Made by a program: the position numbers and the translations under genes. The notes under the pieces are model-generated. The model was not told where the DNA came from, searched no databases, and saw only the letters and a list, made by a program, of their open reading frames with translations. From positions 1 to 55,316 of IMG/VR virus record IMGVR_UViG_3300037485_000169: 55,316 bases of DNA; one strand, 5' to 3'. Origin of the DNA: a virus (lineage: Duplodnaviria > Caudoviricetes). How positions within the stretch are numbered: position 1 is the stretch's first letter; each line of letters begins with the position of its first letter. Shown in pieces: positions 1-54,017 of the stretch.

Positions 1-146
1 ATCATAAGCACAGAGAACTCAGCAGGCATACGTTCGGCGTAGGTAACGGCACGGTCCATGTTACCGTCAGTGATCCGTGCAGCAAGCGACCCAGACAGAG
101 CGTATAGAGTAGCCGGATCAGTCGGCGCGTCAGCAGATGACGGGTT
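1..146. repeat. Terminal direct repeat, copy 1 (circular overlap)
   Basis: 1-146 equals 55171-55316 except G127 vs A55297. Confidence 0.97.
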
Positions 147-908
147 CATAAGCACAGCATCAGGGTTAGGCAGCTTGCGCCATATCCGCATAAAGCCAAC
201 AAACTCAGCCGCTGCCCCCTCACCAACAGCACCCTTGAAGCACTCATACTCAGCCTCGAACGGCACAGCACCAAGCACTGCGGAGACACCTTCGACCCAG
301 CTACGTGGTGTTGGGTTCTGGTCACGTTGAGCATCGAAGTCATGCAACAGACCGGGACGGAAGCGTATGAAGCTAACCACCTCTGGCTTGACGTTGTTGT
401 CCAGCATCCACTTGGTCGAGTCGTTGAGGTCGGTCTCAAAATCCAACGTGGTCTCACGGTTAGCCAGATGGCTGAGGATACGCACTGCACCAGCACGGTC
501 AGACTGCCTGTTACCAGTGGAGACAACCTGCCAGCCATCAGCAAGACGGATGCCATGCAACTCACGGGCCTGACAGATATTGGCCAGCACCTTCTGAAGT
601 TCAGGTCCAGCCTGATTGCGATCATCGAACAACAAGATACCACCACGTTCTGTGCCCGGCTTGCCTTGGTAGGGGAACCAGTCAGGCAGCTTGTAGCTGA
701 AAGACGCATTGGTAGTGGCCATGTCAGGCACACCGAAATCCTCAACCAGAGCGGTCGGCATATGGCGGACAATGACAGGGACATCCAACTCATTACCCAC
801 TTCATGGACGATGGTTGTCTTACCACCGCCGGGAGGGCCGACGATGCAGACAGTGCGTTGAATGTTGAACAGTGCCTTGAGCGTTCCCTTTAGAAGTTCT
901 GCACGCAT
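1..908 (-). CDS. AAA+ ATPase (MoxR/dynein-related type), 5' part; continues across the contig join to 55083 (331 aa in total)
   Basis: Manual translation from ATG at 908: MRAELLKGTLK...GPPGGGKT (Walker A)...GILLFDD (Walker B)...STGNR...NPTPRSW. No stop before base 1, and in frame with the 55083 ORF. Missing from the ORF track because it runs off the edge. Confidence 0.9.
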   Translation of the reverse strand, partial: MRAELLKGTLKALFNIQRTVCIVGPPGGGKTTIVHEVGNELDVPVIVRHMPTALVEDFGVPDMATTNASFSYKLPDWFPYQGKPGTERGGILLFDDRNQAGPELQKVLANICQARELHGIRLADGWQVVSTGNRQSDRAGAVRILSHLANRETTLDFETDLNDSTKWMLDNNVKPEVVSFIRFRPGLLHDFDAQRDQNPTPRSWVEGVSAVLGAVPFEAEYECFKGAVGEGAAAEFVGFMRIWRKLPNPDAVLMNPSSADAPTDPATLYALSGSLAARITDGNMDRAVTYAERMPAEFSVLM

Positions 909-912
909 AAAC

Positions 913-1083
913 TTATTCTCCTGTGTATAGCTTGTGATCCGGGCCAAATGTAACAACGGCACCACGAGCCAAACGATCCCGGTGTCGCTTGGCTTCCATT
1001 TTACTATCGTGGTACACAACATCACCAAACTGGTCGGTGACCAACGGCCCCCGCTTGTGTCGTCGCAGGGCAAATAAACGCAT
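913..1083 (-). CDS. Small hypothetical protein
   Basis: MRLFALRR..., TAATG overlap with upstream gene, GAGGAG upstream. Confidence 0.7.
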   Translation of the reverse strand: MRLFALRRHKRGPLVTDQFGDVVYHDSKMEAKRHRDRLARGAVVTFGPDHKLYTGE

Positions 1084-1670
1084 TATGCAATCTCCTCTTC
1101 TAAGACCTTGTCTAGGTCGTTTGCCACTATGGCATCCCACACAGCCTCATCGCTCGTGAGATAGTCATGCTCTTTCTCCAGCCGGAGGTAGAGGTCACAA
1201 CAATAGTCCCTGATTAGCTCAGTTACATGGTTGTCTAGTTTGTCGATTTCGGCCTGAAGCTCTTGGTCCCACTGTTCGACCACTGCCCTACGGACATCGT
1301 CATCGTCGTAAGTTACAAGCCACCGAAAGGCAGAGACCCCGTTAGCCTCAGCGTAGACAGTATTCTCATGGCAGTAACGGGCAGTGGAGCTACGGGTTAT
1401 CGATATGTCGCAGTCACCCCCCATGGCCAACAGCCTCATCACCCACGGATAGGTCTCAGCGATATCATGGGCTTCGAGGAACGCTTTGGTATCGTTGATA
1501 TAGCCAGTGAAGGACGCACCATCCCCCTGTGACCAGAAGCCAGTGAAGCGCATATCATGGGCTGTGATATGTTTAGTCTTCATGTCCTCAGCGAAGTGAT
1601 AGTAGGTATCACGCCACCACTCATAATCGATGTTGATGTCACGATATTCTTCAATCAGGTCGATATTCAT
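1083..1670 (-). CDS. Hypothetical acidic early protein (FTGFWSQGDGASF motif)
   Basis: 195-aa ORF coupled to both neighbours. Confidence 0.8.
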   Translation of the reverse strand: MNIDLIEEYRDINIDYEWWRDTYYHFAEDMKTKHITAHDMRFTGFWSQGDGASFTGYINDTKAFLEAHDIAETYPWVMRLLAMGGDCDISITRSSTARYCHENTVYAEANGVSAFRWLVTYDDDDVRRAVVEQWDQELQAEIDKLDNHVTELIRDYCCDLYLRLEKEHDYLTSDEAVWDAIVANDLDKVLEEEIA

Positions 1671-2020
1671 GCTACGAAGCCCCCTATCCGGTTAGCTGCT
1701 AGTGTTTGGAACCCACGCTCCGCCAAGACTTGTATCTGTTGCAGTGACAGAGGGTGAAGCTCAGTCAGGGGATGGGTCTGACTGGCATGTTTGGTAGTGG
1801 TCCTACTGGTCTTGTTATAGTTAGCGAACCAACGGCCAACGGTCTCATCCCATACCAACAACGGCCAATGAGCACCGTAACTATACACTACATAGCGGTC
1901 GCTATTAACCCACTTGCCGTAGAGTTGTTTGTTAGAGTTATGGAAGGGTTGTTTATTTTGGACATAGGTCCGGCATTTCCAGCCAGATACCCGGGTCGAT
2001 TTAGCGGATTTCTCAGACAT
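1667..2020 (-). CDS. Hypothetical early protein
   Basis: ATG at 2020 preceded by GGAG; ATGA overlap with next gene. Confidence 0.8.
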   Translation of the reverse strand: MSEKSAKSTRVSGWKCRTYVQNKQPFHNSNKQLYGKWVNSDRYVVYSYGAHWPLLVWDETVGRWFANYNKTSRTTTKHASQTHPLTELHPLSLQQIQVLAERGFQTLAANRIGGFVA

Positions 2021-2044
2021 GTCTGTCTCCATCGTAAGGGGTCT

Positions 2045-2100
2045 GCCTCATCAGCAGTGAGTAACCAATCTCACTGGACGCCCTGTCAGGGCGTTTCGGC
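2045..2100 (-). ncRNA. Type II hammerhead ribozyme
   Basis: Minus strand reads GCC-GAAA-CGCCCU(GAC)AGGGCG-UC^CAGUGAG(AUUGGUUA)CUCACUG-CUGAUGA-GGC. All conserved core nucleotides, three stems and a GUC cleavage triplet are present. Confidence 0.93.
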
Positions 2101-2376
2101 TTAACTGTGGAAACCAAAGTGATCACCGTGCCACACAGCACCGATCTGGTAAGCAATGGGTTGGGGATCATCGTTATCATGCCGCCAATAGGTAGCTACC
2201 AACTCAGGGTTACCGTCATAGACACCACCGATGATCCTTACCCTTGCTAGAGGCAGGTTCCACTGGCTGAGATAACCAATGGCTTGGAATAGCTCTTGGT
2301 TACCAGTGATCTCAGCGATTGCGGTCAGGGTCTCTGGTTCGAGACCAAATTCTACAGTGCGGTTAGTGTAGCTCAC
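2101..2376 (-). CDS. Hypothetical early protein
   Basis: 91-aa ORF, GTGA overlap with upstream gene, stop abuts the ribozyme. Confidence 0.75.
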   Translation of the reverse strand: MSYTNRTVEFGLEPETLTAIAEITGNQELFQAIGYLSQWNLPLARVRIIGGVYDGNPELVATYWRHDNDDPQPIAYQIGAVWHGDHFGFHS

Positions 2377-2654
2377 AGCTTGATCTCCACAGTGCGGTCA
2401 TAGTTGTATTGGATAGTGGCATGGGTATAGCCATGTTGAATGAGGGTCCGTTTATCCAGAACCGATACCAGACAGCCATGGAATGGTGAGTCATAATCAC
2501 TGACAGAGAAGTCGTGACCAATGGTGAAATCATACACAGCATCAGAGGCCGATAGATAGTTACGGCGGACAGGACGTATAGTTACGTTCTTCAAACGAGG
2601 TGTATAGATACCCTTAAGGTCAGCGAAATTGGTATAGATATTGGTCCGGCTCAT
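2373..2654 (-). CDS. Hypothetical early protein
   Basis: ATG at 2654 with AGGAG 8 nt upstream. Confidence 0.75.
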   Translation of the reverse strand: MSRTNIYTNFADLKGIYTPRLKNVTIRPVRRNYLSASDAVYDFTIGHDFSVSDYDSPFHGCLVSVLDKRTLIQHGYTHATIQYNYDRTVEIKL

Positions 2655-2739
2655 TGCCATCACTCCTGTAAAGTTAGGTAACTGAACAGCCAAATCAAAA
2701 TTCAGATAAGTTTTTATTTTGTTTGGCGGCTCGGCTCCG

Positions 2740-2768
2740 ATTGTGCCGGTTTTCGGGGTCGGTGTCAA
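2740..2768 (-). promoter_or_regulatory. Sigma70-like promoter for the leftward early operon
   Basis: TTGACA-17 nt-CACAAT on the minus strand, about 85 nt upstream of ATG 2654. Confidence 0.65.
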
Positions 2769-2777
2769 GTTACGGCG

Positions 2778-3400
2778 CAAGTCGTTGATTTTTCGAGGTT
2801 TTTTCGCCGAACGCGGCAGAGTGTATAGTAGAGCTAAAAAGTGTAAAAATTAAAATAAAAACGCGTTTGAAATTTAAAATCAAAATAAAAACGTGTTTGA
2901 AATTTGTTTTGATTGTGTAAAGTTAGGGGTAAGTGCTTGAGAAACCACGATAAAGCTGTAAGTATACAAGTTACAACAATATAGTATAGTTAGCCAAATA
3001 ATCTACTGTAAGTGTTTGAAATATAACGGATGATATAGATAATATAGTTTTTTGGAGATAATAAGCTGCGCGAGGGTGTGTTTGTTAGAGAGCGAGGAAA
3101 CTATACACGTTTAAAGAAAAGTTATCCACAGGGGGTCAAAACATTTTGCTCTGCTTTAAAATTTTCTTGATTTTTTATATTATTTATATTGTTTAAAACA
3201 CAACTATCTCCTGAGACCCTTGGATTTCCGTGGTTTTTTACAGCGCAAAGTGTATAGTATGTATAGTTAACCAATAATATAAAAACGGGTCTGATCAGGA
3301 AAAAGTAGATTATTTAAAAGTTAAGTCATTGATTTTGTTACAAGTATTTATATAACTATACACATTTCTGATATAACTATACAGCCCCCCTGTATAGTGC
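2778..3400. other. AT-rich non-coding control region, candidate replication origin
   Basis: Strong AT enrichment; IHF consensus matches at 2778-2790 and 3322-3334; DnaA box TTATCCACA at 3122-3130; repeated GTGTATAGTT boxes. Confidence 0.55.
2852..2905 (+). repeat. Direct repeat, 24 bp x2 at a 30-bp period
   Basis: AAAATAAAAACGCGTTTGAAATTT / AAAATAAAAACGTGTTTGAAATTT. Confidence 0.9.
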
Positions 3401-3475
3401 CTGATAGCGGCGTTAGCACAGCTATAAACCCCCGACGTATGGGAGGCGAAGCCGACCCAAACGCGCAGCGCAGAC

Positions 3476-3509
3476 AAAAAGAAACCCCACCAGCCGGAGC
3501 CAGTGGGGT
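3476..3509 (-). terminator. Intrinsic terminator
   Basis: Minus strand ACCCCACTGGC-TCCG-GCTGGTGGGGT then TTCTTTTT, just after the stop at 3515. Confidence 0.85.
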
Positions 3510-3514
3510 GAGGG

Positions 3515-3703
3515 TTAGACGAATTCTTCTTTGGTTGTGCGTTCGATCCAGTCGATGGCTTCACGCCTGCTGTCTGCGACAGCGAAGACGTTGCCGTGGA
3601 TGACACACCACTTGCCGGAACGAGGGTAGACGAGGAAGTCGCCTGCCGTGGTGATGTAGAGCGTGGACATGTCCGCGCCTAGGCTATGTGCAATTACACG
3701 CAT
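3515..3703 (-). CDS. Small hypothetical protein
   Basis: ATG at 3703 with GGAG RBS; followed by terminator. Confidence 0.75.
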   Translation of the reverse strand: MRVIAHSLGADMSTLYITTAGDFLVYPRSGKWCVIHGNVFAVADSRREAIDWIERTTKEEFV

Positions 3704-3721
3704 GTTAATCTCCAAGAAGGT

Positions 3722-3743
3722 GGGAGGGACTTGCGTCCCTCCC
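3722..3743 (-). other. Intergenic GNRA-tetraloop hairpin
   Basis: GGGAGGGAC-GCAA-GTCCCTCCC on the minus strand. Confidence 0.75.
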
Positions 3744-3750
3744 GTTTAGG

Positions 3751-4038
3751 TCAGTCGAAGTAGGCGCTCTTGCGCTTGGCGACCACGCCGTCCCGCTTGG
3801 GGAGTAGGGCGAGATACGGGTTGCCCCACTTGTCGGCGAGGATAACCGGTTCGGTTCCCTTTGCGTCGGGCTTGAAAACCCGGGCAACCAACTTGTGTTC
3901 CTTGGCCAGAGCCTGAACCCGCTTGTGAACCGCTGCTGCGTCTTCCGCAGTGTATTTGCCGTCCACGAGCTTGCCGAGAACCACTTCACCCTTGCCGTTG
4001 GCCTTGATGCCAAAACGACCTTCATAAACCTTAGCCAT
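3751..4038 (-). CDS. Hypothetical basic protein, first gene of the leftward arm
   Basis: MAKVYEGRFG..., GGAG RBS, phage-like codon usage. Confidence 0.8.
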   Translation of the reverse strand: MAKVYEGRFGIKANGKGEVVLGKLVDGKYTAEDAAAVHKRVQALAKEHKLVARVFKPDAKGTEPVILADKWGNPYLALLPKRDGVVAKRKSAYFD

Positions 4039-4049
4039 GCTAAGTCTCC

Positions 4050-4162
4050 AGTTTGCCCATCCCGAGGCTTTCAAAGATCAGACAGGGTGGGATAGTCCCT
4101 GCCGCCGCAGCGGTGTTCCGCTTTGGCCTATTCTTTATCGCCTAATTCGCCATGAATGTAAA
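4050..4162 (-). promoter_or_regulatory. Putative early promoter and structured leader with boxA-like element
   Basis: TTTACA-17-GATAAA (weak -10), two hairpins, then TGATCTTTGAAA at 4080-4069. Confidence 0.4.
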
Positions 4163-4356
4163 GTTTCGGGGCCAACGCGTGCGCGAGCGCGTGCGTGTGT
4201 GCGTGCGCGCACCCCGCCCACATGGACTGCGGGATGCTAGGCCCCCCGTAGTGTAGTAAAGTTCACAATCCAACACCCCAAAAATCGAACGTGTATAGTT
4301 AGCCCTACCAAAAATTTTGCCGCCCCAAAAACAAACGTGTATAGTTACGCGCTATC

Positions 4357-4384
4357 TTGACGGACCCCACCAAAATGCTACCAT
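4357..4384 (+). promoter_or_regulatory. Sigma70-like promoter for terS (predicted leaderless transcript)
   Basis: TTGACG-16 nt ending in TGC-TACCAT; ATG begins 7 nt after the -10; no SD. Confidence 0.55.
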
Positions 4385-4390
4385 CCCCCG

Positions 4391-4888
4391 ATGGACAGCC
4401 TGCCTCTACACCTGACCAAGTGGACCGACCGCCTAGCGTTCGACGTGGCTCTATGTCTGGAAGGGTCCGGCGAAAGTTTGGACGAGATCAAGGACCGCCA
4501 CAGGATAGATGCCAATGATCTCTTGGTGTTTAACCGCGACTCGGTGTTCCTCAAGCGTGTGGAGAGCTATCGCGAGGAAGTGAAAGAGAAGGGACTGACG
4601 TTCCGACTCAAAGCGCGGGCACAAGCGGAAGAACTCCTGACGACAAGTTATATGTTGATCCACGACCCCGCTGTGTCACCTGCCGTGAAGGCAGACCTGA
4701 TCAAGAGCACAGTCAAGTGGGCTGGTCTGGAGCCGAAGAACAACGAGAATGATGCCAACGCTGGCGGTGGCGGGGTTAAGATTATGATCAACCTTGGCTC
4801 ATCCCCACAGGACACACGGGTCATCGACGTTACACCACGGGTAATTGAGGATAGCTCCGATGATGTTGACCCCGATGAGTACATATGA
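4391..4888 (+). CDS. terS: Probable terminase small subunit
   Basis: First rightward gene upstream of terL; helical core and C-terminal GGGVKIMINL motif. Confidence 0.65.
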   Translation: MDSLPLHLTKWTDRLAFDVALCLEGSGESLDEIKDRHRIDANDLLVFNRDSVFLKRVESYREEVKEKGLTFRLKARAQAEELLTTSYMLIHDPAVSPAVKADLIKSTVKWAGLEPKNNENDANAGGGGVKIMINLGSSPQDTRVIDVTPRVIEDSSDDVDPDEYI

Positions 4889-5033
4889 CGGCGTCCCCTG
4901 TTTTAGGTTAAAGACCGCTGGTGGTGCCTCGGCAGCCGAGGCCATGCTACGCGACGAGGGTAGATCGTTCCGGACCAAGATAACGAAATCCAGAAAACAT
5001 GGGATCGAGTATATCGTCATGGTGTTGGACTGA
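4875..5033 (+). CDS. Small hypothetical protein
   Basis: MSTYDGVPCF..., fills the gap between terS and the next gene. Confidence 0.6.
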   Translation: MSTYDGVPCFRLKTAGGASAAEAMLRDEGRSFRTKITKSRKHGIEYIVMVLD

Positions 5034-5036
5034 GCC

Positions 5037-5243
5037 ATGAGATTTGGGTGGGCAGCAGCGATGGTCTATGAGGACGATGGAGGGTATCATGCCCACATCA
5101 TACCGATTGATGACCTGCGGGAGCATGAGCTTCATGCCGATTGTTGGTGCAACCCTGACGAAGACGACGATGAGTATGGCATATGGGTCCACCGTGCGCT
5201 GGACCGGCGCGAAGAATATGAGACTGATGGGATGAAACACTGA
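5037..5243 (+). CDS. Small His/Cys-rich protein, possibly metal-binding
   Basis: HIIPIDDLREH...DCWCNP...WVH; TGATG coupling to terL. Confidence 0.7.
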   Translation: MRFGWAAAMVYEDDGGYHAHIIPIDDLREHELHADCWCNPDEDDDEYGIWVHRALDRREEYETDGMKH

Positions 5244-6631
5244 TGGCTCTGGAAATTAACTATACGCCGCCGCCTACTGGCAAACGGTTCATGGAGAGCA
5301 ACGCCAAGATGCGAGCACTCATGGGTCCGGTCGGGTCTGGCAAGTCGGTAACCTGCTGCTTCGAGATCATACGCCGAGCGTCCATGCAGGAGCCTGATGA
5401 GTCGGGGAAGCGGCGCACGCGTGCTGCTGTGGTCCGTGAGACTGCCCGGCAGTTGGAAGATACGACGATCAAGACGTTCCTTGACTGGTTCCCACCGGGG
5501 CAGTGTGGGGTGTGGCTGCGGACCAAGAAGACCTATTTCTTCAAGGTGGGTGATGTCGAGTGCGAGATTATGTTCCGTGCGCTTGATGACGCGGACGATG
5601 TGGCCAACCTGAACTCGCTGGAGCTTACCTTCGCATGGTTCAACGAGTGCCGGGATATCCACCCTGATATTGTCGACGCCATGTCAAAGCGTGTTGGACG
5701 CTTCCCGTCTGCGAAGGATGGTGGGCCGACATGGCATGGGATGTGGGGGGATACCAACCCGCCGACGATGGACACATGGTGGTACTACCAGTTTGAGAAG
5801 CTCGACCCCAAGGACGGTGTGTCGGCTAACGACAATGGCTGGGACGTGTTCAAACAGCCGTCAGGTCGCAGTCCCTACGCCGAGAATATCGAGAACTTGC
5901 CGGAAGGGTATTACGACACGCAGGGTCGCTCGGAAGAGTATGTGCGTGTGTTCATCGACGGGGACTACGGCCTGTCGAGCGCAGGGCAGCCGGTGTACAA
6001 ATACTTCAGGCCGGACTACCACATGGCCAAGCAGATGCTCAGGCCGATTGTTAACGGTGTGCGGCCCATCATAATCGGGATGGACTTGGGGCTAACGCCT
6101 GCGGCTGTCATCGGGCAACAGGACCCGAGGGGGCGTGCGCTCATCCTCGCCGAGGCAGTCAGCTTCGACATGGGCATCCAGAGGTTTGTCCGCACCGTAC
6201 TTAAGCCGCTGCTCTACGAGCGCTTCTCGGGTGTGCCTGTGATGGTGGTGACCGACCCGGCAGGTATTCAGCGAGCGCAGACTGACGAGCGCAGTGCCGT
6301 GGACATTATCAAAGCGGAGGGGCTGCGTGTCATGGCGGCCAAGACGAACAATGTCTCGGCGCGGATTAACGCGGTTGATGAGTATCTCATGCGGCAGGTT
6401 GACGGCGACCCGGGGTTCCTGCTCGATCCGCGATGCACCGCGCTTAAGGCTGCCATGATGGGCGGCTACAGATACAAGCCCAAGACTGACGGGATGATCG
6501 ACAAGAACAAGCACAGCCATATCGCCGAGGCGTTGCAGTATCTGTGCCTCCACCTCCATAGTGCGGGTGAGGGAGCCATGGTTACGCAGCGGCGCGAGAT
6601 CAAACGGGTTGCATCCGCAGGCTGGACCTGA
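5243..6631 (+). CDS. terL: Terminase large subunit
   Basis: GPVGSGKS Walker A, WFNE Walker B, GDTNP, and C-terminal RNase H-like IGMDLG...HIAEALQY. Confidence 0.95.
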   Translation: MALEINYTPPPTGKRFMESNAKMRALMGPVGSGKSVTCCFEIIRRASMQEPDESGKRRTRAAVVRETARQLEDTTIKTFLDWFPPGQCGVWLRTKKTYFFKVGDVECEIMFRALDDADDVANLNSLELTFAWFNECRDIHPDIVDAMSKRVGRFPSAKDGGPTWHGMWGDTNPPTMDTWWYYQFEKLDPKDGVSANDNGWDVFKQPSGRSPYAENIENLPEGYYDTQGRSEEYVRVFIDGDYGLSSAGQPVYKYFRPDYHMAKQMLRPIVNGVRPIIIGMDLGLTPAAVIGQQDPRGRALILAEAVSFDMGIQRFVRTVLKPLLYERFSGVPVMVVTDPAGIQRAQTDERSAVDIIKAEGLRVMAAKTNNVSARINAVDEYLMRQVDGDPGFLLDPRCTALKAAMMGGYRYKPKTDGMIDKNKHSHIAEALQYLCLHLHSAGEGAMVTQRREIKRVASAGWT

Positions 6632-32802: not shown

Positions 32803-35800
32803 ATGGCTCAGGCCGGTCTGTCGAATTTGAACCCGCTAGTATCTCCGGCGGGTTCTGACCTTAATCCTTTGGTCAATCGTACACCTCCGGCTATGTCGGG
32901 TCTCGATGCGCTCCAGCAGAGCTTGGCTGGTATCACAGCCATGGGTGAAGCGGCTCGTGCGCAGGTGCGCGCTCCAGAGATCGCGGCTCCTCCGGCGCAG
33001 CAAGCGCCGACGCCGACCATTGCGTTCAGCCCATCTCGTGGCGAGTTCTTTGTGCAAGGTCGCACGTTCTCCAAGGACGATGCGCAGAGCGCGATTGAGA
33101 GCGAGGCTCTCTTGGGTCAGCCGGGCGCTCCGCTCCCCACTGGTGACTGGGTCCCCGTCGATCCGCAAGCCTATGCGGGTTACCTCCAAGGGATTAAGGA
33201 ACCGAGCCTCGGCACGTTGTTCTCTAAAGGTATCGGTCGTGGTATCGATACCAGCCAACTTCTGATTGGCCGTGGTCTCCAACTTGCTGGCGCTGAAGAA
33301 TTTGGCGGTGGCATTGTTACGCAGCAGATGGAAGACCTGCGCCGTGGGATGCCCTTCAGCCGTCAGTTCACCGACATCCAAGACCCGGGCGATGCGCTTG
33401 AGTGGTTCGTTGCAGGCTTCGGTGAGCAGGTTCCTAACCTCCTTGAGTCCGTTGCTGTCGCAGGCGCTGGTGCCATTGGCGGCACATTCACTGGTGGTCC
33501 CGGTGTCGGTACGGCTGCGGGTGCTCTCGCTAGCCTCGCTGGTAAGTCTGCGTTTAAACAGCAGGTTCTTGCGGCTGCTCGTAAGAAGGCAGCCGGTGAG
33601 GTTCTCGACCAAGCCGAGAAGAAAATTCTCCGCAGCGCAGGCGCTCTCGTTGGGGCCACGGCGGCAACATTCGCTAACAGCTACCGCACTGGTGCGGCTG
33701 ACATCTATGGGGAACTCCGCGAGCAGGGTGCCGACCCGGATGACATTTCATCCAAGATGCTCGCACTTGCAGGAGCATTTCCCTATGCGTTGGCAGAAAG
33801 CGCTACTGAGTATCTGTTGGCCGGTCGTGTCCTTGGCGGGATTGCTGCTCCTCGTGCCATTCCTGCTGGTACTTCTCTCCCTCGTCGTGGTGCTGAACTT
33901 CTGCGCCGTGGTGCTGTGGGCGGTGCAGTGGGTGGTATCGCCGAAGGCGGTACGGAGCTTGCGCAAGAGTCACTCCTCCTAGGTCTGTCTGATCAGGACT
34001 TCAGCAAGCCTGAGAACATCGAACGCCTCATCAACTCATTTGCCGCTGGCGCTGCTATCGGCGCACCCATCGGTGGTATCGCCAACCTCAGAGGGACCAA
34101 GCCTACCAGCTTGCTGGGTGGGGAAGCCGATATGCTGGCTCTACCCCCGCCGCCTCTGCGTCTACCTCCACCTGCTGGACCTGAAGCTGGACCGCCGTTG
34201 CTTCCTGCTCCCATGGGTAACCAAGGCACGCTACCACTGACAGGTGGTGGTATGAATGTCCTTACGCCGCCCGCGCCGCCCGCGCCCGGTCAGGTGGAAA
34301 TGTTCCCCGGTGCCGACCTTGGCGCTGCTCCTGACGCTGACCAACTGGAACTGCCTTTCGCCACTGGCATCACGCCTGCCGCAGCACCGGCACCTACTGG
34401 TCTGCCTCCAATTCAAGATGTCCTGCCGTTCGAGTCTGGTCTGGCACCACGATATCTTGCGCCGATTGAGCCTGTAGCAGCGCCCGGTGCGCTGGCTGAT
34501 AACCCTGTTCTGCGTGCAATCCAGCAGCAACAGCAGCAAGCACAGATGGCCGCGCAGCGGCAGGCCGAGTTCGAACAGGCACAGGCTGCCCGTACTGCCG
34601 TCCCCGAAATTAGTGCACTTGATCAGCGTCTGGCTGAGTCGCAGCCCTTCTTGGATGTTGTCGGCACTGAGGGCACGCTGCTTCCTGAACCTACCTATGG
34701 CGCTACTCCCGCAGAAGCAGCCGAAGAATGGCGTGCACTGGCTGGCCGTGGCCGCCCCAAGCCGTTTGCCAACTTCCTACCCGAAATCCAGAACCAGTGG
34801 ATCGATGCGCTCAATATGGCGCAGGCAGGTGAACTTACTGTCGATGATCTCAGGACCATTCGTAACGAACTGGTGGCCGCAGAGAACGCTGCGCGTCTTA
34901 CAAAGTCCGCACCTCGCACAGTTGTCACTGGCGACATAACCCCGACACCTACCCCGCCGAAGGGAGGCAAAGCCCGTGCCCTTAAAAAGCCAAAAGCAAC
35001 TGCGGTGGCTCCAAGCAAACCGACCGGAACTCGCGGAGAAACTCTCAAGCGACCTGCTGCCCGAGCAGTTGCAGAACCTACCGGAAAGCCAGCCGCCAAG
35101 CCAGAAGCCAAAGCCAAGGTCGAAGCCGCACCTGTTCAGAAGGGACAGGGACAAGCTGTTCAAGATGTAGCGAAAGCTCCTGCGAAGCCGAAGGCCGTAG
35201 TTCCGCCGGGCCAAGCCCGTGGGGAAATGACTGACGCTGCGCGTATCGACGACGCCATTACGTTCGTTGAGGAAGCCACGACCAAGACCAACCGCGACGA
35301 TGTGCGCGATGCCTATTACGATATCTTGGAGCTTGCCTTCTTCGAGCGCCTGTCCAGTGGCACAGTCGAGGGTCGCAAAGCGATCCAGACCAAGGCGCGT
35401 GACTTCCTCAAGGGTCCGATCTCCAAGTGGCATCAGCCCTCGCTGGCCAAGGCGTTCCGCGATATCATGCTGCGTGAGGACACTCTCCCCGCTGATGGTC
35501 CGTGGTTCCAGTTCATGATGGACAACGACCTTACTGATGCGTTCCCGGCCAAGGCGAAAGCCAAGGTTACCAACGTCAGCAAGATCAAGGACGATGCGCT
35601 TCGAGCACAGGCCGAAGAGATGTTCATGGTAGAAGAGCAGCCTGCGGTCACCGCACAGGCAACATACCAGAGCAGGTTTGTGAATGTTGAAGCACCCCTT
35701 CAGAAGCTCGCATCTCTACTGACATCCATGCCCAAGGTCATGAGCTTGGACCGCCCGTTCGTGTTCCGTCAGGAGCAGTATGAGAACTTGCCGTTCGCAC

Positions 35801-38800
35801 TCGAAGACCTGTTTGCTGAGGTCAACGAGGCTGACCGCAATGCGCTGGTCAATGGCTATCCGCTGAAGGATTACTTCACCAAGGACGGCGAAGCCAAGTT
35901 CGAAACCACACCCAGTGGCCTCAACACTCCGACTGCCAAGAAGGATGATGGTCGTTTTGCTTTGGCCGCGTTCAACCAGCCTGATCGCGCTGATCCTGCT
36001 ATGGGTAAGTTGCGTATGGCGGTCACACGGTTCGTGTCGAAGCTGGCGACCAAACCCAAGGTCGCGGTGTTCAAGAACCAAGCCGACATGAAGGCGAATA
36101 ACCCCGCGCTCTATCGCGAGGCTGTGGCTGCGCGTCCTGAAGGCGACTTCGATACCGCACTGGCTGCGGGTTACTCGTTCGGCGATGGCAAGGTTATCAT
36201 CTTCTCAGACCGTATCGCCAACGAACAGCATCTCAACTTTGTGCTGGCGCATGAGACCCTTGGCCACTTCGGTTTGCGTGGGATCATCCCGGCCAAGCAG
36301 TTCGACGCAGTCATGGAAGCGATCTACAAGGCCAGCCCGGCCATCCGCTCGGATGTGGATATCGCAATGGCAGACCGCGACCAGTCTCGTTCGGAAGCTG
36401 TCGAGGAGTATCTCTCTGACTTTGCCGGTGTGCTCGACACCAGCGTGGTGGCCCGGATATGGAACGCCATCAAGAACGCACTCAACAAACTGGGCATCAA
36501 GTTCGGCGACGAGATGGTGCGCTACATCCTGAAGCAGTCACGATCCTACGTGCGCAGTGGCAAGTCGAGTATGTTCGATGCGGCCAAGGTCTTCACCGAT
36601 CTCCAAGATGTGGAATATGGTAAGGGCTATGCGTCCACCGGGCGGTTCAGCACAGTGGGAGATATCTACGCAGATAACCGCACGGCTGAACTGGTGCGCG
36701 ACAACATCGCTAACGCACCGCTGAACTGGGAGAAGGCGTGGGCCACAGTCAAGGGCATCACTGGCAATAGCGGCGACCGGTTCGACCGGTTCAAAGCTGA
36801 GTTCCTCAGCCTCGCCAACTTCCGTTCGCGCAACAACCCCGGCCTCAACCGCTTGGAGGAAATCCTCGAAGCGGCGCGTGACCTTACATCCAGCATCCGG
36901 GTGTCCAGCAACGAGCGCAACGCAGAGGTGTTCGACGCTGCCGTCTTTGGCAAATACTTCGGTGTTACCGACGAACAGACCGACTCGATCAACAAGCTGA
37001 TGTACGCTGCACAGCGCTTCGCTGTTGGTAAGATCAAGGACATCCGCCAACTCAGGGGTGCACCCCTCTATGAGTTCAAGAACGGTGTGCTGACGCCGAA
37101 CCAGACCGAGATCGACAAGCTCATCAAGCAGGGTATGGTCACCTTCGAAGAAGCGCGGGACGGGTTTACCTATGAAGTCCAGCTTCCTGATGGAACCACA
37201 CGCAAAGAGAAGTTTGCAGGTATCCCCGGCCTGACCAAGCAGAGTGTCGAGTGGCGTGGATATCTCAGCCTGCGTGAGACGGTCAATGATGTGGAGCTTC
37301 AGCTTCTGCGTGCCCGTTACCAGAGCCTGTTCGAAGACCAGCAGATCGCGTTCAAACAGTTCGACGAACTGGTCGAGAACAAGCGCCTGACCAACGCAGA
37401 GCGCGATCTTTTGCGCCGCATCATCAAGACGTACAACGATCTCTACACGGCAGACATCACCTTCGATGAGCGCGGCTATCCCAAACTCAACGCAGAAGCC
37501 ATGGAGAGCGGTAACGATTTCGTCGTGGCCATCAATAAGGCACTGGTCCTTGGTCAGGACCGGGACTTCCGTGCAGTCGCTGACTTCTTTGAAGGCAAGG
37601 CGGCTGACGATATGGTCGCCAAACTGCGTGAGTTCCGCAAGCGCCTGAAGATCGGGGCCGAGAACAAATTCACCATCCAGAACCGGGTCAAGCAAATCCT
37701 GATGCTGGAAGTGTCGAACGCTGACGCTGATCTCTATACCCGCCGCACAATCGCCACTGGCTACACCCCGCTGTTGCGTGAGGGTCAGTTCCAAGTCCGT
37801 GTCGAAGCAGTCAACCCGCGCACAGGTAAGGTCGTCCGTCTGGCCGATGCCTATCGTGAGCAGCTTATCTACTCGCAGGTGGAGAAGCAAAGCGAAGCGC
37901 GGCAGATCGCCGAAGGCATCAACAACGTCTTCAAGGACAAGACCTACGAAGTCGACGCCTATAATCAGGACGCTGGTGAGTTTACCAAGCAGACCGTGAT
38001 CTTCCGGGCCGTCCCAGAGACAGCGCTCGACGCCATTGCCGGACCTCCTGAGTTGAACCTCAACGAGTTTGTGTATGGTTTGCGTCAGCTTGATATTGTT
38101 CTGACGCCGAAGGAAGTCGAGCGCGTGGTCACTGCCCTGACCAAGCAGAACAGTTCGGCGCGTAACCGCCTGCTGCGTGCCTTCACTCCGGGCGCTGATC
38201 CGGACGCCATCAAGGCCATCTCACAGCATATCGACTCGCGTGCTTCGACCATCTCCAAGACCATGATGCGTCCGCAGTTGAGCGAGCTTATGAACTTGTC
38301 GATGGAGTCCACACAGCGCTTGTGGAATGGTGACGCCCGACTGCTGGCCAGCCTCAAGACTGCGGCAGAGAACACCAACTTGTCTCCTGATGAACGTGCC
38401 ATCGCCCAGCGAGAGTACGAGCGGTACAAGTATATGTACGAACAGACCAACCCGAAGGGTAAACCGAAGCGGGGCAATCAGTTCTACAACGAAGCCTCAC
38501 GCACAGTGTCGTTCCTCGATGACAACCGCAGCGTGACCGAGTCGAACTTCGAAAGCGGCGAGGTAGTCTCGCGGGTCCGTGCTGCTACCAGTATCATGCA
38601 GCTTGGTGGCTCTATCGCCACTGGTGCGCTCAACCTGATCAGTGCCTACACCAACGGTCTTCCGTTCCTTGCCAGCTACAATCCCAGCAATGGTTTCGGT
38701 GGCGGCTTCGGTATCGGTCCCTCGGTTGCTCAGTTCCACATCGCGGCCAAGCAGGTCGGTGCGCTGGGCATCGCCAACATGAAGGCCAACACGGCTGAGT

Positions 38801-40143
38801 TCTACGATGAGATAGCTGCCACTCCCGATCTACAGGCGCGGTACAACCTGAAGAAGCATGAGGCTGAGTTCATCGCACGAGAAATTCGTGAGGGTGCCAT
38901 GATCCCGGCGCAGACCAACGCGCTGATTAACACTGCCCGTGGCCAGATATCGTCAGGTTTCGCACGTAAATTTATCGATGGTTGGATGTTGCCGTTTAAC
39001 CTTACGGAGCAGGCATCTCGCCGCACATTGGGTCTGGCTGCCTATCGCCTTGAGTATGAGCGCCAGATCGCAGGTGGTAAGGGCGAAGCCAAAGCAAAGG
39101 AAGCGGCCCGTCGCTTCGCCGTCGATGCTCTGAACCTGACCATGGGTGAGTACTCGGTGCTCAACCGTCCGCCTGCATGGCGTTCGGGTATCCAGTCGTT
39201 CCTCTATATGTACAAGGTCTTCCCGACCACCTCGATCCAGTTGTTCTCGAACCTGTCGCGTGGTGGTAAGATCGCCATGCTGGCATCTCTGTGGATGCTC
39301 TCTGGTTTGCAGGGCCTGCCGTTCGCCGAAGACCTCGAAGACTTGATCGACACACTGGCTCAGGCTCTTGGGTTCAAGGTCGGCAGCATCCGCATGGAGA
39401 TCGCCCAGTTCATCGACGGTATCTTCCCCGGCATGTCACCCTACTTCCTACAGGGTGTGGTCAACTCGGCAGTACCCGCCGACATCGCTGGTCGTGTCTC
39501 CATCGGCAACCTGTTCCCCGGCACGGGTATCCTCCTGTCGGGTGCGGATGTGGGCCGTGAGCTTACTGACATCGCTGGCCCTGCGCCTTCGGCCCTGATC
39601 GGGTCGGCCCAGTTCTTCGCTGACCTGATGCGTGTGCCGTTCTCTGATCGCATCCAGCTTGTTGACGTGCTCCGCGAGGCTCCAATCACCATGTTCCGTG
39701 CAACCGGTGACGCTGTTGCCTACGCCAAGTCAGACGCCATTGTGGACCGCCGTGGCTATGTCGTGGCTGATGACGCCAACGCTGGAGTTATCGCTACCCG
39801 TCTGCTTGGGTTCTACCCGTCCGCTGCTGCTGAACAGTATAGCGCGATCCGCGTCGCAACCCGAGTGACTGACTACCAGAGAGATGTTGTGGCAGGCTTC
39901 CGTCAAGCATGGATCAAGGCCACAATGGAAGGTGACGCCAGCCGCGCCCGTGAGATCGAGCAGGCAGTGGATAGCTGGAACGAGGGTGCCAAGGGTACAG
40001 GGCTTGAGATTGCCGACTTCCGTCGCCGGTCACAGCGTGCACTCAAGGAAGCTCAACGTCCGGCCAAGGAGCGCACACTCAGGACTACTCCCAAAGCCGG
40101 TCGCGAGGATATCGAGAAGGCGTTCGACGCCCTCTCTTACTAG
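32803..40143 (+). CDS. Giant ejection/polyvalent-type protein with zincin-like motif
   Basis: 2446 aa; VLAHETLGHFGLR...AVEEY (HExxGH...EE); C-terminal SGLQGLPFAEDL region; last gene of the late arm. Confidence 0.75.
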   Translation: MAQAGLSNLNPLVSPAGSDLNPLVNRTPPAMSGLDALQQSLAGITAMGEAARAQVRAPEIAAPPAQQAPTPTIAFSPSRGEFFVQGRTFSKDDAQSAIESEALLGQPGAPLPTGDWVPVDPQAYAGYLQGIKEPSLGTLFSKGIGRGIDTSQLLIGRGLQLAGAEEFGGGIVTQQMEDLRRGMPFSRQFTDIQDPGDALEWFVAGFGEQVPNLLESVAVAGAGAIGGTFTGGPGVGTAAGALASLAGKSAFKQQVLAAARKKAAGEVLDQAEKKILRSAGALVGATAATFANSYRTGAADIYGELREQGADPDDISSKMLALAGAFPYALAESATEYLLAGRVLGGIAAPRAIPAGTSLPRRGAELLRRGAVGGAVGGIAEGGTELAQESLLLGLSDQDFSKPENIERLINSFAAGAAIGAPIGGIANLRGTKPTSLLGGEADMLALPPPPLRLPPPAGPEAGPPLLPAPMGNQGTLPLTGGGMNVLTPPAPPAPGQVEMFPGADLGAAPDADQLELPFATGITPAAAPAPTGLPPIQDVLPFESGLAPRYLAPIEPVAAPGALADNPVLRAIQQQQQQAQMAAQRQAEFEQAQAARTAVPEISALDQRLAESQPFLDVVGTEGTLLPEPTYGATPAEAAEEWRALAGRGRPKPFANFLPEIQNQWIDALNMAQAGELTVDDLRTIRNELVAAENAARLTKSAPRTVVTGDITPTPTPPKGGKARALKKPKATAVAPSKPTGTRGETLKRPAARAVAEPTGKPAAKPEAKAKVEAAPVQKGQGQAVQDVAKAPAKPKAVVPPGQARGEMTDAARIDDAITFVEEATTKTNRDDVRDAYYDILELAFFERLSSGTVEGRKAIQTKARDFLKGPISKWHQPSLAKAFRDIMLREDTLPADGPWFQFMMDNDLTDAFPAKAKAKVTNVSKIKDDALRAQAEEMFMVEEQPAVTAQATYQSRFVNVEAPLQKLASLLTSMPKVMSLDRPFVFRQEQYENLPFALEDLFAEVNEADRNALVNGYPLKDYFTKDGEAKFETTPSGLNTPTAKKDDGRFALAAFNQPDRADPAMGKLRMAVTRFVSKLATKPKVAVFKNQADMKANNPALYREAVAARPEGDFDTALAAGYSFGDGKVIIFSDRIANEQHLNFVLAHETLGHFGLRGIIPAKQFDAVMEAIYKASPAIRSDVDIAMADRDQSRSEAVEEYLSDFAGVLDTSVVARIWNAIKNALNKLGIKFGDEMVRYILKQSRSYVRSGKSSMFDAAKVFTDLQDVEYGKGYASTGRFSTVGDIYADNRTAELVRDNIANAPLNWEKAWATVKGITGNSGDRFDRFKAEFLSLANFRSRNNPGLNRLEEILEAARDLTSSIRVSSNERNAEVFDAAVFGKYFGVTDEQTDSINKLMYAAQRFAVGKIKDIRQLRGAPLYEFKNGVLTPNQTEIDKLIKQGMVTFEEARDGFTYEVQLPDGTTRKEKFAGIPGLTKQSVEWRGYLSLRETVNDVELQLLRARYQSLFEDQQIAFKQFDELVENKRLTNAERDLLRRIIKTYNDLYTADITFDERGYPKLNAEAMESGNDFVVAINKALVLGQDRDFRAVADFFEGKAADDMVAKLREFRKRLKIGAENKFTIQNRVKQILMLEVSNADADLYTRRTIATGYTPLLREGQFQVRVEAVNPRTGKVVRLADAYREQLIYSQVEKQSEARQIAEGINNVFKDKTYEVDAYNQDAGEFTKQTVIFRAVPETALDAIAGPPELNLNEFVYGLRQLDIVLTPKEVERVVTALTKQNSSARNRLLRAFTPGADPDAIKAISQHIDSRASTISKTMMRPQLSELMNLSMESTQRLWNGDARLLASLKTAAENTNLSPDERAIAQREYERYKYMYEQTNPKGKPKRGNQFYNEASRTVSFLDDNRSVTESNFESGEVVSRVRAATSIMQLGGSIATGALNLISAYTNGLPFLASYNPSNGFGGGFGIGPSVAQFHIAAKQVGALGIANMKANTAEFYDEIAATPDLQARYNLKKHEAEFIAREIREGAMIPAQTNALINTARGQISSGFARKFIDGWMLPFNLTEQASRRTLGLAAYRLEYERQIAGGKGEAKAKEAARRFAVDALNLTMGEYSVLNRPPAWRSGIQSFLYMYKVFPTTSIQLFSNLSRGGKIAMLASLWMLSGLQGLPFAEDLEDLIDTLAQALGFKVGSIRMEIAQFIDGIFPGMSPYFLQGVVNSAVPADIAGRVSIGNLFPGTGILLSGADVGRELTDIAGPAPSALIGSAQFFADLMRVPFSDRIQLVDVLREAPITMFRATGDAVAYAKSDAIVDRRGYVVADDANAGVIATRLLGFYPSAAAEQYSAIRVATRVTDYQRDVVAGFRQAWIKATMEGDASRAREIEQAVDSWNEGAKGTGLEIADFRRRSQRALKEAQRPAKERTLRTTPKAGREDIEKAFDALSY

Positions 40144-51604: not shown

Positions 51605-52041
51605 TTCGCGTCTCCTCTCAGCCGGTCAGCCACCAGCTTGGCATAGCCAGCGATGTCATCCCATGAGTCGATGTAATTGGGATCGCCGTTCAAGATGCGC
51701 CCGATCTTGTGGAAGATCATATCGAGGGCTTCGACCTGATCGGAGTCAAATGCCTTACCTTTACTGACAGCAAACTCATACGCTGCCTTCTTCAACCCCT
51801 GCGTCACATGGGCATGGTCCTTGAATATACCGTAGCGAGAGCCACGCTCTTCGAGGATGCGGTCTATCGTGTTTACATCCTGCACTTCGACAGGCTCAAC
51901 ATCCTCAGACTTATCCTTGAGCCATTTATTCTCGACCTGAGTGACGTAGACCGGATGACACCCTACGCGATCTGCGATCTGCCACTTGTTGAGGTGGGGG
52001 AAGTCGCACATTGTGCGGATGATCATTTCTTTCTTAGTCAT
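51601..52041 (-). CDS. HTH plus DUF6378-like domain protein
   Basis: WQIADRVGCHPVYV; LEERGSRYG...KIGRILNGDPNYIDSWDDIAGYA. Confidence 0.75.
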   Translation of the reverse strand: MTKKEMIIRTMCDFPHLNKWQIADRVGCHPVYVTQVENKWLKDKSEDVEPVEVQDVNTIDRILEERGSRYGIFKDHAHVTQGLKKAAYEFAVSKGKAFDSDQVEALDMIFHKIGRILNGDPNYIDSWDDIAGYAKLVADRLRGDAK

Positions 52042-52676
52042 TATAGTCCTCCTAACTTGCTTGCTGCCAGTACTGCGGTCAGCTTGGTTGTATCGATCTC
52101 GGGTGCTGCCCGATCTGATTTGGTACGCTCGACGATCTGCTTGTGTCTCTCCTTGGCATACTCAGGGACCAGTTCCCACAGCGGGGGCCATGCCTTCAGG
52201 GCCGGAGCCAGTGTCGAGTAGGACGCAAGCACTTTGGATACGCCTTCGACAAACGTCTGTGACTGACCACGCATGGCTGCGCACCGCTGCTTCCACTCGT
52301 CTACCTCGGCCTTTAACTCTGCCCACACAGGGTCATCGTTGAGCCAGACGTTATCGCCATACATACCCCTCTCGGCAGGTGCATCGCTGGGTAGGTTCAT
52401 AGGCCACCGCTTGGCCGAGGATAAATTGAAGTTTAAACTTACTGGCGATCCGGATATCCGGTTCACTGTGAGTTTGTCCTTCGTATAGAACATCTCGCTG
52501 GGCAGTTGCTCCATGATGGGGATATGCTTACCCAAAATCTTCTCATAGATATACTCACCCCACTGTTCGCCAGTGGGAGCACTCGCCTCTGCCGCTTTAA
52601 TCCGGTCAAAGAACTTACTCTTGGCGACGTCAAGGATATCCTCGGCGAGTTGTTTAGTTATGCGTACTACGGCCAT
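52041..52676 (-). CDS. Nmad5-like protein (nucleotide modification-associated domain 5)
   Basis: N-terminal VRIT and C-terminal STLAPALKAWP.LWELVP resemble this family. Confidence 0.5.
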   Translation of the reverse strand: MAVVRITKQLAEDILDVAKSKFFDRIKAAEASAPTGEQWGEYIYEKILGKHIPIMEQLPSEMFYTKDKLTVNRISGSPVSLNFNLSSAKRWPMNLPSDAPAERGMYGDNVWLNDDPVWAELKAEVDEWKQRCAAMRGQSQTFVEGVSKVLASYSTLAPALKAWPPLWELVPEYAKERHKQIVERTKSDRAAPEIDTTKLTAVLAASKLGGL

Positions 52677-52890
52677 CTTCATTCTCCATATCATCATACA
52701 AATTGGACAAGCTCTCATATGTCTGAGCTAGGAACTCATGCTTGGGGACACCGCTCTGTTCGGCACAGTCAGCCATAAGATACAGCAACGCGGTCACCAC
52801 CGTGCCCATCTCATAGCCAGAACAGATCGTACCAAGCTCGATAACGAGGGCACTAAGGCCCTCGGGTTCGTCAAAATCTTCGATCACCAT
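52654..52890 (-). CDS. Small acidic hypothetical protein
   Basis: 78-aa ORF overlapping both neighbours. Confidence 0.65.
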   Translation of the reverse strand: MVIEDFDEPEGLSALVIELGTICSGYEMGTVVTALLYLMADCAEQSGVPKHEFLAQTYESLSNLYDDMENEDGRSTHN

Positions 52891-54017
52891 TTTATTACTT
52901 CTCCAAAGGGGGCTTTCTCAGCACCATCGCTGACCCAAAGCACAGGGTAGTCAGGCTCCGGACCAAAGTCAGAGCAATACAGATCGGTCAGAAACACACA
53001 GGCAACAGGCTCGATGCCATGCTCCTCAGCGTAGCGAAACACAGGGCTGAACGCAGTGCCACCGCCACCATGCGGCTTGATATCCAGCATGTCACCGGGT
53101 TCATACACCTCTGCATGGGACACCTCGCTGTCGAAGTACACGACATGCAGTTTGCGGGGACGGAAGTGCTCGAAGACCTTGGTAATCTCAGCCGCTGCCT
53201 GATTGATCTGTTGTGCTGTGATCGAACCGGAACAGTCGACAGCCCATAGCATCTCACCCATGGTCTCACCGGTCACGCTGGGCAGATAGATACCCTGCGA
53301 TATGAACCGCCGGTTGGGCCGTGCGAAGGTCCGGCTATCGTTCTTGCACTTCTGGAGGAACCGCCACATGACATCGACCCAGTTGACCTTGGGCTGAAGC
53401 ACCTCGTCGACAAGTCTCTGCATGTTGGCCGATAGTTTGCCCATCATCTTGGCAGCCTGTGCTGCCTGAGCAACCTGCACTTTCATCTCGGCAGCGGCCT
53501 GTGCTTGCTCGGCAGGACTACCACCGCCATCGAGGCAGTCATCATAGGCATCGCCGCCATTGTCATTGTCCTCATCAGGCAGCAGGTTGAAGATGCCATC
53601 GCTTGTGCCATTACCTGCATTATACAGGCTGGGATCGAGGCAACCGCCGGGTATAAACTTGCCGATACCCTCCTGTGTCAGGTGGTGGTTGATCACATAG
53701 TCACACGCCTTGTTCCACTTGGCAGGGTCACGCTCGGCACGGCGATAGTTATGCTCCAGCATGGGGTGGAAACACTCATGCGCCACAAGAAACTTAAGCT
53801 GCTCGTCACACAGCGTGTCGATAAAGTGTGGGTTGAACTTGACGTACTTACCGTTGGTTGCCGCAGTGGGGACAGACTCGTCCAGCGTGAACGGCATGTT
53901 GAGAGCGATGGTCCCGACGAAGGGATGCTCTAAGATGAGGGATGTCTTGGCCTTGGCCAGACGGCGGGTGAGGGCGTTGAGATCGCCCGTAAACTCACGC
54001 TTGATTGCTACCTGCAT
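52884..54017 (-). CDS. Metallopeptidase-like plus vWA domain protein (DUF2201-like)
   Basis: PTAATNG, AHECFH (HExxH), VDCSGS (MIDAS), GGGGTAF, FLTD. Confidence 0.88.
   Translation of the reverse strand: MQVAIKREFTGDLNALTRRLAKAKTSLILEHPFVGTIALNMPFTLDESVPTAATNGKYVKFNPHFIDTLCDEQLKFLVAHECFHPMLEHNYRRAERDPAKWNKACDYVINHHLTQEGIGKFIPGGCLDPSLYNAGNGTSDGIFNLLPDEDNDNGGDAYDDCLDGGGSPAEQAQAAAEMKVQVAQAAQAAKMMGKLSANMQRLVDEVLQPKVNWVDVMWRFLQKCKNDSRTFARPNRRFISQGIYLPSVTGETMGEMLWAVDCSGSITAQQINQAAAEITKVFEHFRPRKLHVVYFDSEVSHAEVYEPGDMLDIKPHGGGGTAFSPVFRYAEEHGIEPVACVFLTDLYCSDFGPEPDYPVLWVSDGAEKAPFGEVIKW

Follow-up and report, generated by a model that had tools for sequence, protein, structure and literature searches.

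Type II hammerhead ribozymes that have a pseudoknot are described by Perreault et al. (2011; PMC3088659) as very common among bacteria and as present in prophage operons. A contact between loop I and the 3′ tail was defined there for the type II class and probed by mutation; a pseudoknot of at least 4 bp is found in the majority of type II members. Phage hammerheads were proposed in the same paper to cut long transcripts into gene-length mRNAs, and clustered prophage hammerheads were reported that bracket genes and cut in vitro, one set cutting in E. coli. Three type II hammerheads located by phage-like genes in Desulfovibrio vulgaris cleave in vivo, as reported from cyPhyRNA-seq (PMC8782182). 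A review published in 2019 (PMC6765202), where it deals with these elements, treats a role in phage-transcript processing as suggested but still unproven, and refers to bacterial and phage hammerheads as functional orphans. By the account in PMC3328962, the sole bacterial ribozyme with a known fate is glmS in B. subtilis, where the 5′-OH end targets the cleavage product to RNase J1. Further literature searches gave nothing more specific on the function of phage hammerheads.

The DNA analyzed here, which we call the window, covers the whole of a 55,316-bp IMG/VR virus record labeled 'linear', with a CheckV completeness of 100. A cmscan of all 55,316 bp on both strands against 4227 Rfam families at gathering thresholds gave a sole match within the 55-kb record. 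This match, to Hammerhead_II (RF02276), lies at 2101-2037 on the minus strand and spans positions 1-66 of the 66-position model with a score of 50.0 bits against a gathering threshold of 37 (E = 2.3e-7); a single-family search of the record with RF02276 gave an E value of 5.4e-11. A permissive Rfam scan of the record (E ≤ 1) returned nothing beyond the Hammerhead_II match, and RF02276 had no match in 14 control genomes. The search with this model had been put forward as a check on the original prediction, namely that a complete type II hammerhead is present on the coding strand, and the full-model score together with the sequence, which is as it had been described, bears the prediction out. 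The element is composed of the following parts:

2037..2101, minus strand: whole type II hammerhead including the 3′ tail (Rfam RF02276 span, our covariance model R1 and minimum free energy fold)
2098..2100, minus strand: 5′ strand of stem II, GCC (11.3-11.1), which pairs with GGC at 2047-2045 (sequence)
2094..2097, minus strand: core residues G12, A13 and A14 plus A15.1, GAAA (sequence, Rfam alignment)
2079..2093, minus strand: stem III hairpin, CGCCCU-GAC-AGGGCG (sequence, fold)
2077..2078, minus strand: U16.1 and C17, with the predicted scissile bond at 2077/2076 (place in the Rfam alignment)
2055..2076, minus strand: stem I hairpin, 7 bp CAGUGAG/CUCACUG with the 8-nt loop AUUGGUUA (2069-2062) (sequence, fold)
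2048..2054, minus strand: core residues C3-A9, CUGAUGA (sequence, Rfam alignment)
2045..2047, minus strand: 3′ strand of stem II, GGC (10.1-10.3) (sequence)
2040..2043, minus strand: 3′ tail GACC, candidate pseudoknot partner of loop I GGUU (4 bp possible)

The UAA of the gene at 2101-2376, located at 2103-2101, directly adjoins stem II. Stem III is formed by CGCCCU (2093-2088) with AGGGCG (2084-2079) around the loop GAC (2087-2085) and is closed by the pair A15.1 (2094)-U16.1 (2078); in stem I, CAGUGAG (2076-2070) pairs with CUCACUG (2061-2055); and the tail after the stem II GGC reads AGACCCCU. The conserved core, C3 U4 G5 A6 N7 G8 A9 with G12 A13 A14, is present at every position, and the posterior probability over the model core is '*'. 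Residue 17 ahead of the predicted scissile bond is a C (2077), i.e., non-G, and forms part of a GUC triplet. The permutation is that of type II: stem II is the open one, and loops close stems I and III. Overall, the core, the closing pair of stem III, the helix order and the score that define Rfam Hammerhead_II are found in the window element. Both core segments and the GUC triplet are where they had been placed before, as are stems I-III, the cut at 2077/2076 and the beginning of the ribozyme right after the TAA of gene 2101-2376. Compared with the type II hammerheads described by Perreault et al. (2011; PMC3088659), the element is alike in its core, topology, GUC site, G-rich loop I facing a C-rich tail and intergenic setting in a phage operon, and we saw no essential difference. 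Judged by these features, it is a genuine type II hammerhead ribozyme and is very probably catalytically active. The D. vulgaris examples likewise share the ribozyme type, the hypothetical or phage-like neighbors and, at the minimal size, fragments of ~30 and 39 nt (PMC8782182); they cleave in cells, and for the window ribozyme cleavage is predicted from sequence. Two open reading frames that run over the ribozyme, 1754-2104 (plus strand) and 2013-2180 (minus strand), were discarded as genes because relatives show indels, compensatory stem changes, or no 66 nt at this place.

Related contigs were gathered from viral and metagenome collections through searches with both flanking proteins. The same ribozyme, in the same place and on the gene strand, was found with Rfam in L010/11/12, L013, L016, L025, L029, L035 and L036 (handles denote individual contigs or loci); among 39 whole viral records, 11 contained one Rfam-level Hammerhead_II each and 28 contained none. 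A core-anchored descriptor identified 46 instances in 148 sequences, a count that includes repeat fetches of identical contigs, and 46/46 were on the strand of the flanking genes. Our own covariance model, R1, was built from seven equal-length copies and scored the window ribozyme at 55.5 bits; at E ≤ 1 it returned 27 matches from a set of 100 sources and 14 from a set of 40.

Covariation in related phages was another check proposed with the original prediction, and it was evident when 18 distinct copies, whose sequences are related, were fitted to the model structure (alignment A5). An alternative MAFFT alignment (A3) was left out of the counts because its stem III gaps were misplaced. Standard pairs were formed by 99.0% of the 299 stem cells, and both-sided changes were seen in 13 of the 17 pairs (61 cells). 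The covariation score was 0.597 versus 0.197 ± 0.021 in shuffles, with 0/500 shuffles as high, and when the 3′ partners were slid by 1-3 columns as a control, pairing fell to 30-52%. Stem II (helix 1) was 100% paired in the 18 copies, its middle pair being C-G in 12 and U-A in 6; stem III (helix 2) was 99.1% paired with both-sided changes in 4/6 pairs; and stem I (helix 3) was 98.6% paired with both-sided changes in 8/8 pairs. The sequence of stem III is wholly different among lineages: CGCCCU/AGGGCG in the window, CAGGGA/UCCCUG in L013 and CCGG/CCGG in L016. On the other hand, GAAA and GUC were present in 18/18 copies, as was the A15.1-U16.1 pair, and the 11 core bases (CUGAUGA plus GAAA) were invariant in 17/18; the exception, L131, reads CUGACGA, a change at the free position N7. 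An invariant core combined with varying stems is the pattern of a working ribozyme, despite the alignment being fitted to the structure and the sequences being related.

These data bear directly on whether the element might be a chance or decayed look-alike that is inactive, or a pair of hairpins acting merely as a stabilizer or attenuator, with cleavage irrelevant. Some hammerhead-like candidates examined by Perreault et al. (2011; PMC3088659) were found to be inactive, and plain hairpins do occur at the ribozyme's junction in other relatives. However, the window element is a full-length match at E = 2.3e-7 in which each core position fits the consensus, and the same 11 core bases stay invariant in 17/18 diverged copies while the stems covary; a plain hairpin needs no such core. 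We therefore consider a look-alike of either kind highly improbable.

A blastn search with 1500-3500 of the window against 50,697 phage records gave no match, and the best TerL identity, found with tblastn, was 45.6%, to a Pseudomonas phage. A search for the family of the 91-aa protein encoded upstream of the ribozyme in 185,579 species genomes gave 12 pattern matches, none of which was confirmed. By these sequence comparisons, the ribozyme lineage belongs to an uncultured family of ~55-kb phages without a close cultured relative. A different RNA element was encountered in a related ~57-kb phage, where a group I intron containing a large insertion (L017:5355-6212) matched RF00028 with 79.1 bits against a gathering threshold of 50.

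Folding of the 65 nt alone gave a minimum free energy (MFE) structure identical to the secondary structure of the hammerhead, at −23.3 kcal/mol (z = −2.35; equalled by 5 of 200 shuffles). In a 141-nt context both hairpins were kept and the 3-bp stem II was replaced by other pairings in the MFE structure. The loss of stem II suggests that the active fold depends on a tertiary contact, and its absence from the longer-context MFE is expected of a type II hammerhead. A pseudoknot between GGUU of loop I (2066-2063) and GACC of the tail (2043-2040) had been proposed and is the candidate for this contact. The proposal stands insofar as 4 bp can form, one of them G-U; taken alone, however, the pairing is no better than chance, as 4 bp were also reached by 76% of 2000 shuffled tails. 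Most shuffled tails pair equally well because loop I is G-rich and the tail C-rich, a composition that leaves this per-sequence test with little power. Across the 18 copies, the best pairing between loop and tail had a mean of 4.22 bp versus 3.35 in shuffles and 3.45 when loops and tails were mismatched between lineages. Moreover, the lineages switch both partners in place, with the combinations UGGUU/AGCCA, GGUC/GACC, UGACC/GGUCA, GCC/GGC and GGUU/AACC, and the UGACC/GGUCA lineage forms 5 Watson-Crick pairs. A GGUU/GACC pseudoknot in the window is consistent with these switches within the family and with the mutation tests of Perreault et al. (2011), which together constitute its backing.

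All genes around the ribozyme are on the minus strand. The surrounding features, in the direction of transcription, are as follows:

3484..3509, minus strand: intrinsic-terminator-like hairpin of 11 pairs (7 G-C) followed by a T-run (consensus match only)
2781..3483, minus strand: AT-rich non-coding region of ~700 bp, 30-33% GC, with promoter-like sites (consensus matches only)
2373..2780, minus strand: first of two genes ahead of the ribozyme, 3′ of the AT-rich region
2101..2376, minus strand: upstream gene, encoding the 91-aa protein, whose GTG start overlaps the TGA of gene 2373-2780 (GTGA, 2376-2373)
1667..2020, minus strand: downstream gene, encoding 117 aa (121 aa from an ATG at 2032), with GGAG at 2030-2027, 6 nt before the ATG at 2020

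The ribozyme occupies the 80-nt spacer from the stop codon at 2101 to the ATG at 2020. The predicted cut site is located 24 nt past the upstream UAA and 56 nt ahead of the ATG, which agrees with the ~55 nt anticipated. The stop of gene 1667-2020 overlaps the ATG of gene 1083-1670 (ATGA, 1670-1667). Next downstream is an AAA ATPase gene (3-1073), and the far end of the record has genes for DUF2201/vWA, Nmad5, DNA polymerase, exonuclease, helicase and primase/helicase. The original prediction of ATPase/vWA and replication genes downstream is thus supported by the gene content, as is that of two promoter-proximal genes upstream (2373-2780 and 2101-2376), which come just after an AT-rich region that is promoter-like by consensus matches only.

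Neither flanking protein had a match in Pfam or PHROG. The 91-aa protein belongs to a conserved family, for which 122 loci were fetched. AF2 models of the 91-aa and 117-aa proteins (pLDDT 92.9 and 77, respectively) yielded no PDB fold match by Foldseek at E ≤ 0.001, and the top PDB rows for both, with TM values of 0.3-0.4, were dismissed as noise. Comparison with the Atlas gave no lead for the 91-aa protein and a weak lead to DUF8033 for the 117-aa protein. The row downstream of the ribozyme comprises a MoxR-like AAA ATPase (3-1073), a DUF2201 metallopeptidase/vWA protein (52884-54017) and Nmad5 (52041-52718), all on the minus strand. Nmad5 proteins are nucleotide modification associated, and the row may represent a DNA-modification or anti-defense module. 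Elsewhere in the window, a very long ORF of 2446 aa (32803-40143, plus strand) is located at the end of the structural gene block.

Fifteen promoter-like sites were called in 1-5300 versus 5.3 ± 2.7 in shuffles, most of them within 2781-3483, all being consensus matches only. The −10 elements of those on the minus strand end at 3100, 2983, 2820 and 2740, and region 2781-3483 is the probable start of the ribozyme-carrying transcript, as judged from such consensus matches only. The hairpin at 3509-3484 ends a short preceding minus-strand unit, its call as a terminator being a consensus match, and from 2780 to 1 the minus strand had no terminator-like call. By the gene layout and the lack of a called terminator, the ribozyme is therefore placed within a long operon, ~0.7 kb from its beginning, where it separates two gene blocks that are each translationally coupled; this placement is based on consensus scans and ORF geometry. 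Contigs from the four public sequencing runs compared with the locus, runs that contained 0.05-0.08 of the sampled words, did not reach 1222-2331 and yielded no molecule ends. Region 2781-3483 also contains repeated TATAGT/CTATAC-like motifs, a direct repeat of ~30 nt (uuucaaacRcguuuuuauuuu...) and promoter-like sites on both strands; it may be an early promoter cluster or an origin. At the downstream gene, the start codon at 2020 is central in a small palindrome (CAGAC-AUG-UCUG region, 2012-2026, minus strand) that forms a 5-bp hairpin in the fold, and a weaker version of it is present in L010. This hairpin may influence translation initiation.

From the sequence and layout of the locus, we consider it likely that the polycistronic early transcript cleaves itself at 2077/2076, between the two translationally coupled gene blocks. 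A minus-strand transcript that probably starts near 2800-3100 would carry the ribozyme in the 80-nt spacer, and the ~65 nt, once transcribed, would fold and cut the RNA between C17 (2077) and 2076. The cut would part an upstream block coupled through GTGA at 2376-2373 from a downstream block coupled through ATGA at 1670-1667. The upstream two-gene RNA would then end 24 nt past its UAA with the stem III hairpin, UC and a 2′,3′-cyclic phosphate, and the downstream RNA would carry a 5′-OH directly on the first base of the 7-bp stem I hairpin, with the ATG at 2020 following after 56 nt. From then on, lifetime and translation could differ between these two RNAs. The glmS ribozyme is comparable in that self-cleavage inside an mRNA leaves a 5′-OH on the coding part and decides its fate; it differs in having another fold, in being metabolite-dependent and in its location, which is a 5′ UTR and not a spacer between cistrons (PMC3328962). 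There the 5′-OH makes the message unstable by way of RNase J1, contrary to the protection from 5′-monophosphate-dependent decay that had been assumed for the phage message. Since the glmS 5′-OH product is degraded by RNase J1, an effect on stability can run either way.

The junction that follows the 91-aa gene was compared across the 122 loci; 4 with <110 nt downstream were dropped, and identical sequences were collapsed to give 71 distinct junctions. A hammerhead was found at 18 of these and was lacking at the other 53; a 19th candidate, a regex match in L102, was dropped because the covariance model finds nothing there. At 4/71 junctions there is instead an intrinsic-terminator-like hairpin, GGGGCAG-NNNN-CUGCCCC followed by a T-run, and the other 49 show direct gene coupling, plain hairpins, a conserved two-hairpin spacer or other arrangements. 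In the close relatives L014, L015 and L030 the two genes abut directly. By this comparison of sequences, the hammerhead is an optional module of these phages. It is dispensable, even among close relatives, and any benefit is therefore conditional or small. The terminator-like and other hairpins found at the same junction in relatives fit with a transcript boundary at this point.

Two of the alternative junction types were recorded separately. The GGGGCAG-NNNN-CUGCCCC hairpin with its T-run falls in the first 40 nt past the stop of the 91-aa gene in L041-L045 and L073-L075. The two-hairpin spacer, exemplified by L020:3930-3995 and also seen in L021, L022, L084, L093 and L018, is conserved in its loops, GUGACAG and AAUGUC, and its stems show what look like compensatory changes. 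It could not be assigned to an Rfam family, as its best match, SAM-SAH at 15.3 bits against a gathering threshold of 40, is at chance level.

The distribution of the ribozyme was mapped on a tree of 67 91-aa proteins, a short protein for which many forks are unresolved. The 17 carriers in the tree need at least 4 changes versus 15.2 when shuffled (0/500 as low), and 14 of the 17 lie within one set of 20 that has 99% support. This pattern fits mainly vertical inheritance with few gains or losses. Other arrangements were seen in individual relatives. In L025 the ribozyme is beside a different downstream gene. L131:1016-1104 and L065:611-683 have the CUGACGA variant (N7 = C) with a 37-nt insert in stem III, upstream of the gene cluster; whole-record Rfam searches at E ≤ 0.01 did not report this variant, and R1 scored the L131 copy at 28.8 bits and did not report the L065 copy, which was found by the descriptor only. 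L053 contains two type II hammerheads (382-448 and 871-937; R1 scores of 101.7 and 95.3 bits, respectively), in which the 68-nt repeat (AAGCC...CACCUU, one mismatch) coincides exactly with the ribozyme and is placed at two different junctions. These two copies bracket a homologue of gene 1667-2020, which, as read from the sequence, would be released as a single-gene RNA with 5′-OH and cyclic-phosphate ends. The clustered prophage hammerheads of the A. tumefaciens ardA region, A. caulinodans and C. scindens similarly flank single genes or short blocks (PMC3088659), as in L053; they differ from the window, which has a single copy and whose flanking genes are not ardA. L058 has, at 1505-1563, a degenerate partial hammerhead in which the CUGAUGA box is missing, accompanied by a second copy of the ~17 nt that end the 91-aa gene. 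It is read in frame as part of the gene 1667-2020 homologue, where it maps to a variable loop of the encoded protein, and may be a scar left by recombination or an artefact of assembly.

Such variety raises the question of whether the 66-68-nt unit is a neutral or self-propagating cassette, one that spreads between junctions by recombination or other copying and persists because it is harmless. Its patchy presence (18/71 distinct junctions, 11/39 viral records), the duplication in L053 of precisely the ribozyme at two different junctions, the use of other junctions in the same gene cluster (L036, L131 upstream of the first gene, and L025) and the degenerate in-frame partial copy in L058 all point in this direction. 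The compensatory stem changes and invariant core argue that catalytic competence is under selection, the clustering of carriers on the 91-aa protein tree fits mainly vertical inheritance, and no terminal repeats, target duplications or second ribozyme, as a mobile RNA or DNA element would require, were seen at the window copy. We consider such a cassette unlikely. It is worth noting that a selfish element must cleave too and differs from processing of the early transcript only in who benefits; self-cleavage between the two gene blocks remains our preferred explanation.

In 17 of the 18 ribozyme junctions, the distance between the stop of the 91-aa gene and the first base of stem II ranges from −1 to +9 nt; in the 18th, L036, a 50-aa extra ORF intervenes and its TAA directly adjoins stem II, and in the second copy of L053 stem II comes directly after the TAA of another ORF. 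At four junctions, the G of a UAG doubles as the first base of stem II. A start codon is found within a few tens of nt after the ribozyme, which therefore fills the intergenic spacer. Cleavage might then be gated by translation: a ribosome terminating at the stop codon would sit over stem II and the GAAA core and reach into stem III, such that cutting would take place mainly on poorly or not-yet translated transcripts and the fate of the downstream message would be coupled to translation of the upstream genes. In line with this are the −1 to +9 nt spacing in 19/19 copies examined, the UAG whose G belongs to stem II at four junctions, a stem II of only 3 bp and the remark by Perreault et al. 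(2011; PMC3088659) that the pseudoknot might be suited to regulation. However, the dense packing of phage genes gives equal proximity without any gating. Fast hammerheads can also fold and cut co-transcriptionally, possibly ahead of the first ribosome, which counts against gating. Overall, we find a translation-gated switch quite improbable.

A broader and tentative idea, which we rate as unlikely, is that the unit is a portable 66-68-nt cassette for 'transcript punctuation', swappable within this one family of uncultured phages with terminators, hairpins or direct coupling at junctions of the early gene cluster, and copyable to adjacent junctions such that single genes become bracketed, with cutting that is gated by ribosomes at the stop codon it adjoins. 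If true, it would be a protein-free, translation-sensing means by which the phage balances early products encoded near the promoter against distal ones.

The window ribozyme is an expected find, another type II hammerhead in a phage intergenic spacer, and relatives from metagenomes may already be included in the supplementary alignments of Perreault et al. (2011; Dataset S1). Neither is the idea of transcript cutting new, having been proposed in the same study (PMC3088659). The biological role of bacterial and phage hammerheads is a question that has been standing since 2011, and for this question the locus provides a clean natural experiment, in which one conserved gene pair is joined in different relatives by a ribozyme, a terminator-like hairpin, other hairpins or no spacer, or has two ribozymes bracketing one gene. 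The added value of the locus is in this natural set of junctions, which allows a direct test of the effect of cleavage on the flanking messages, including its direction.
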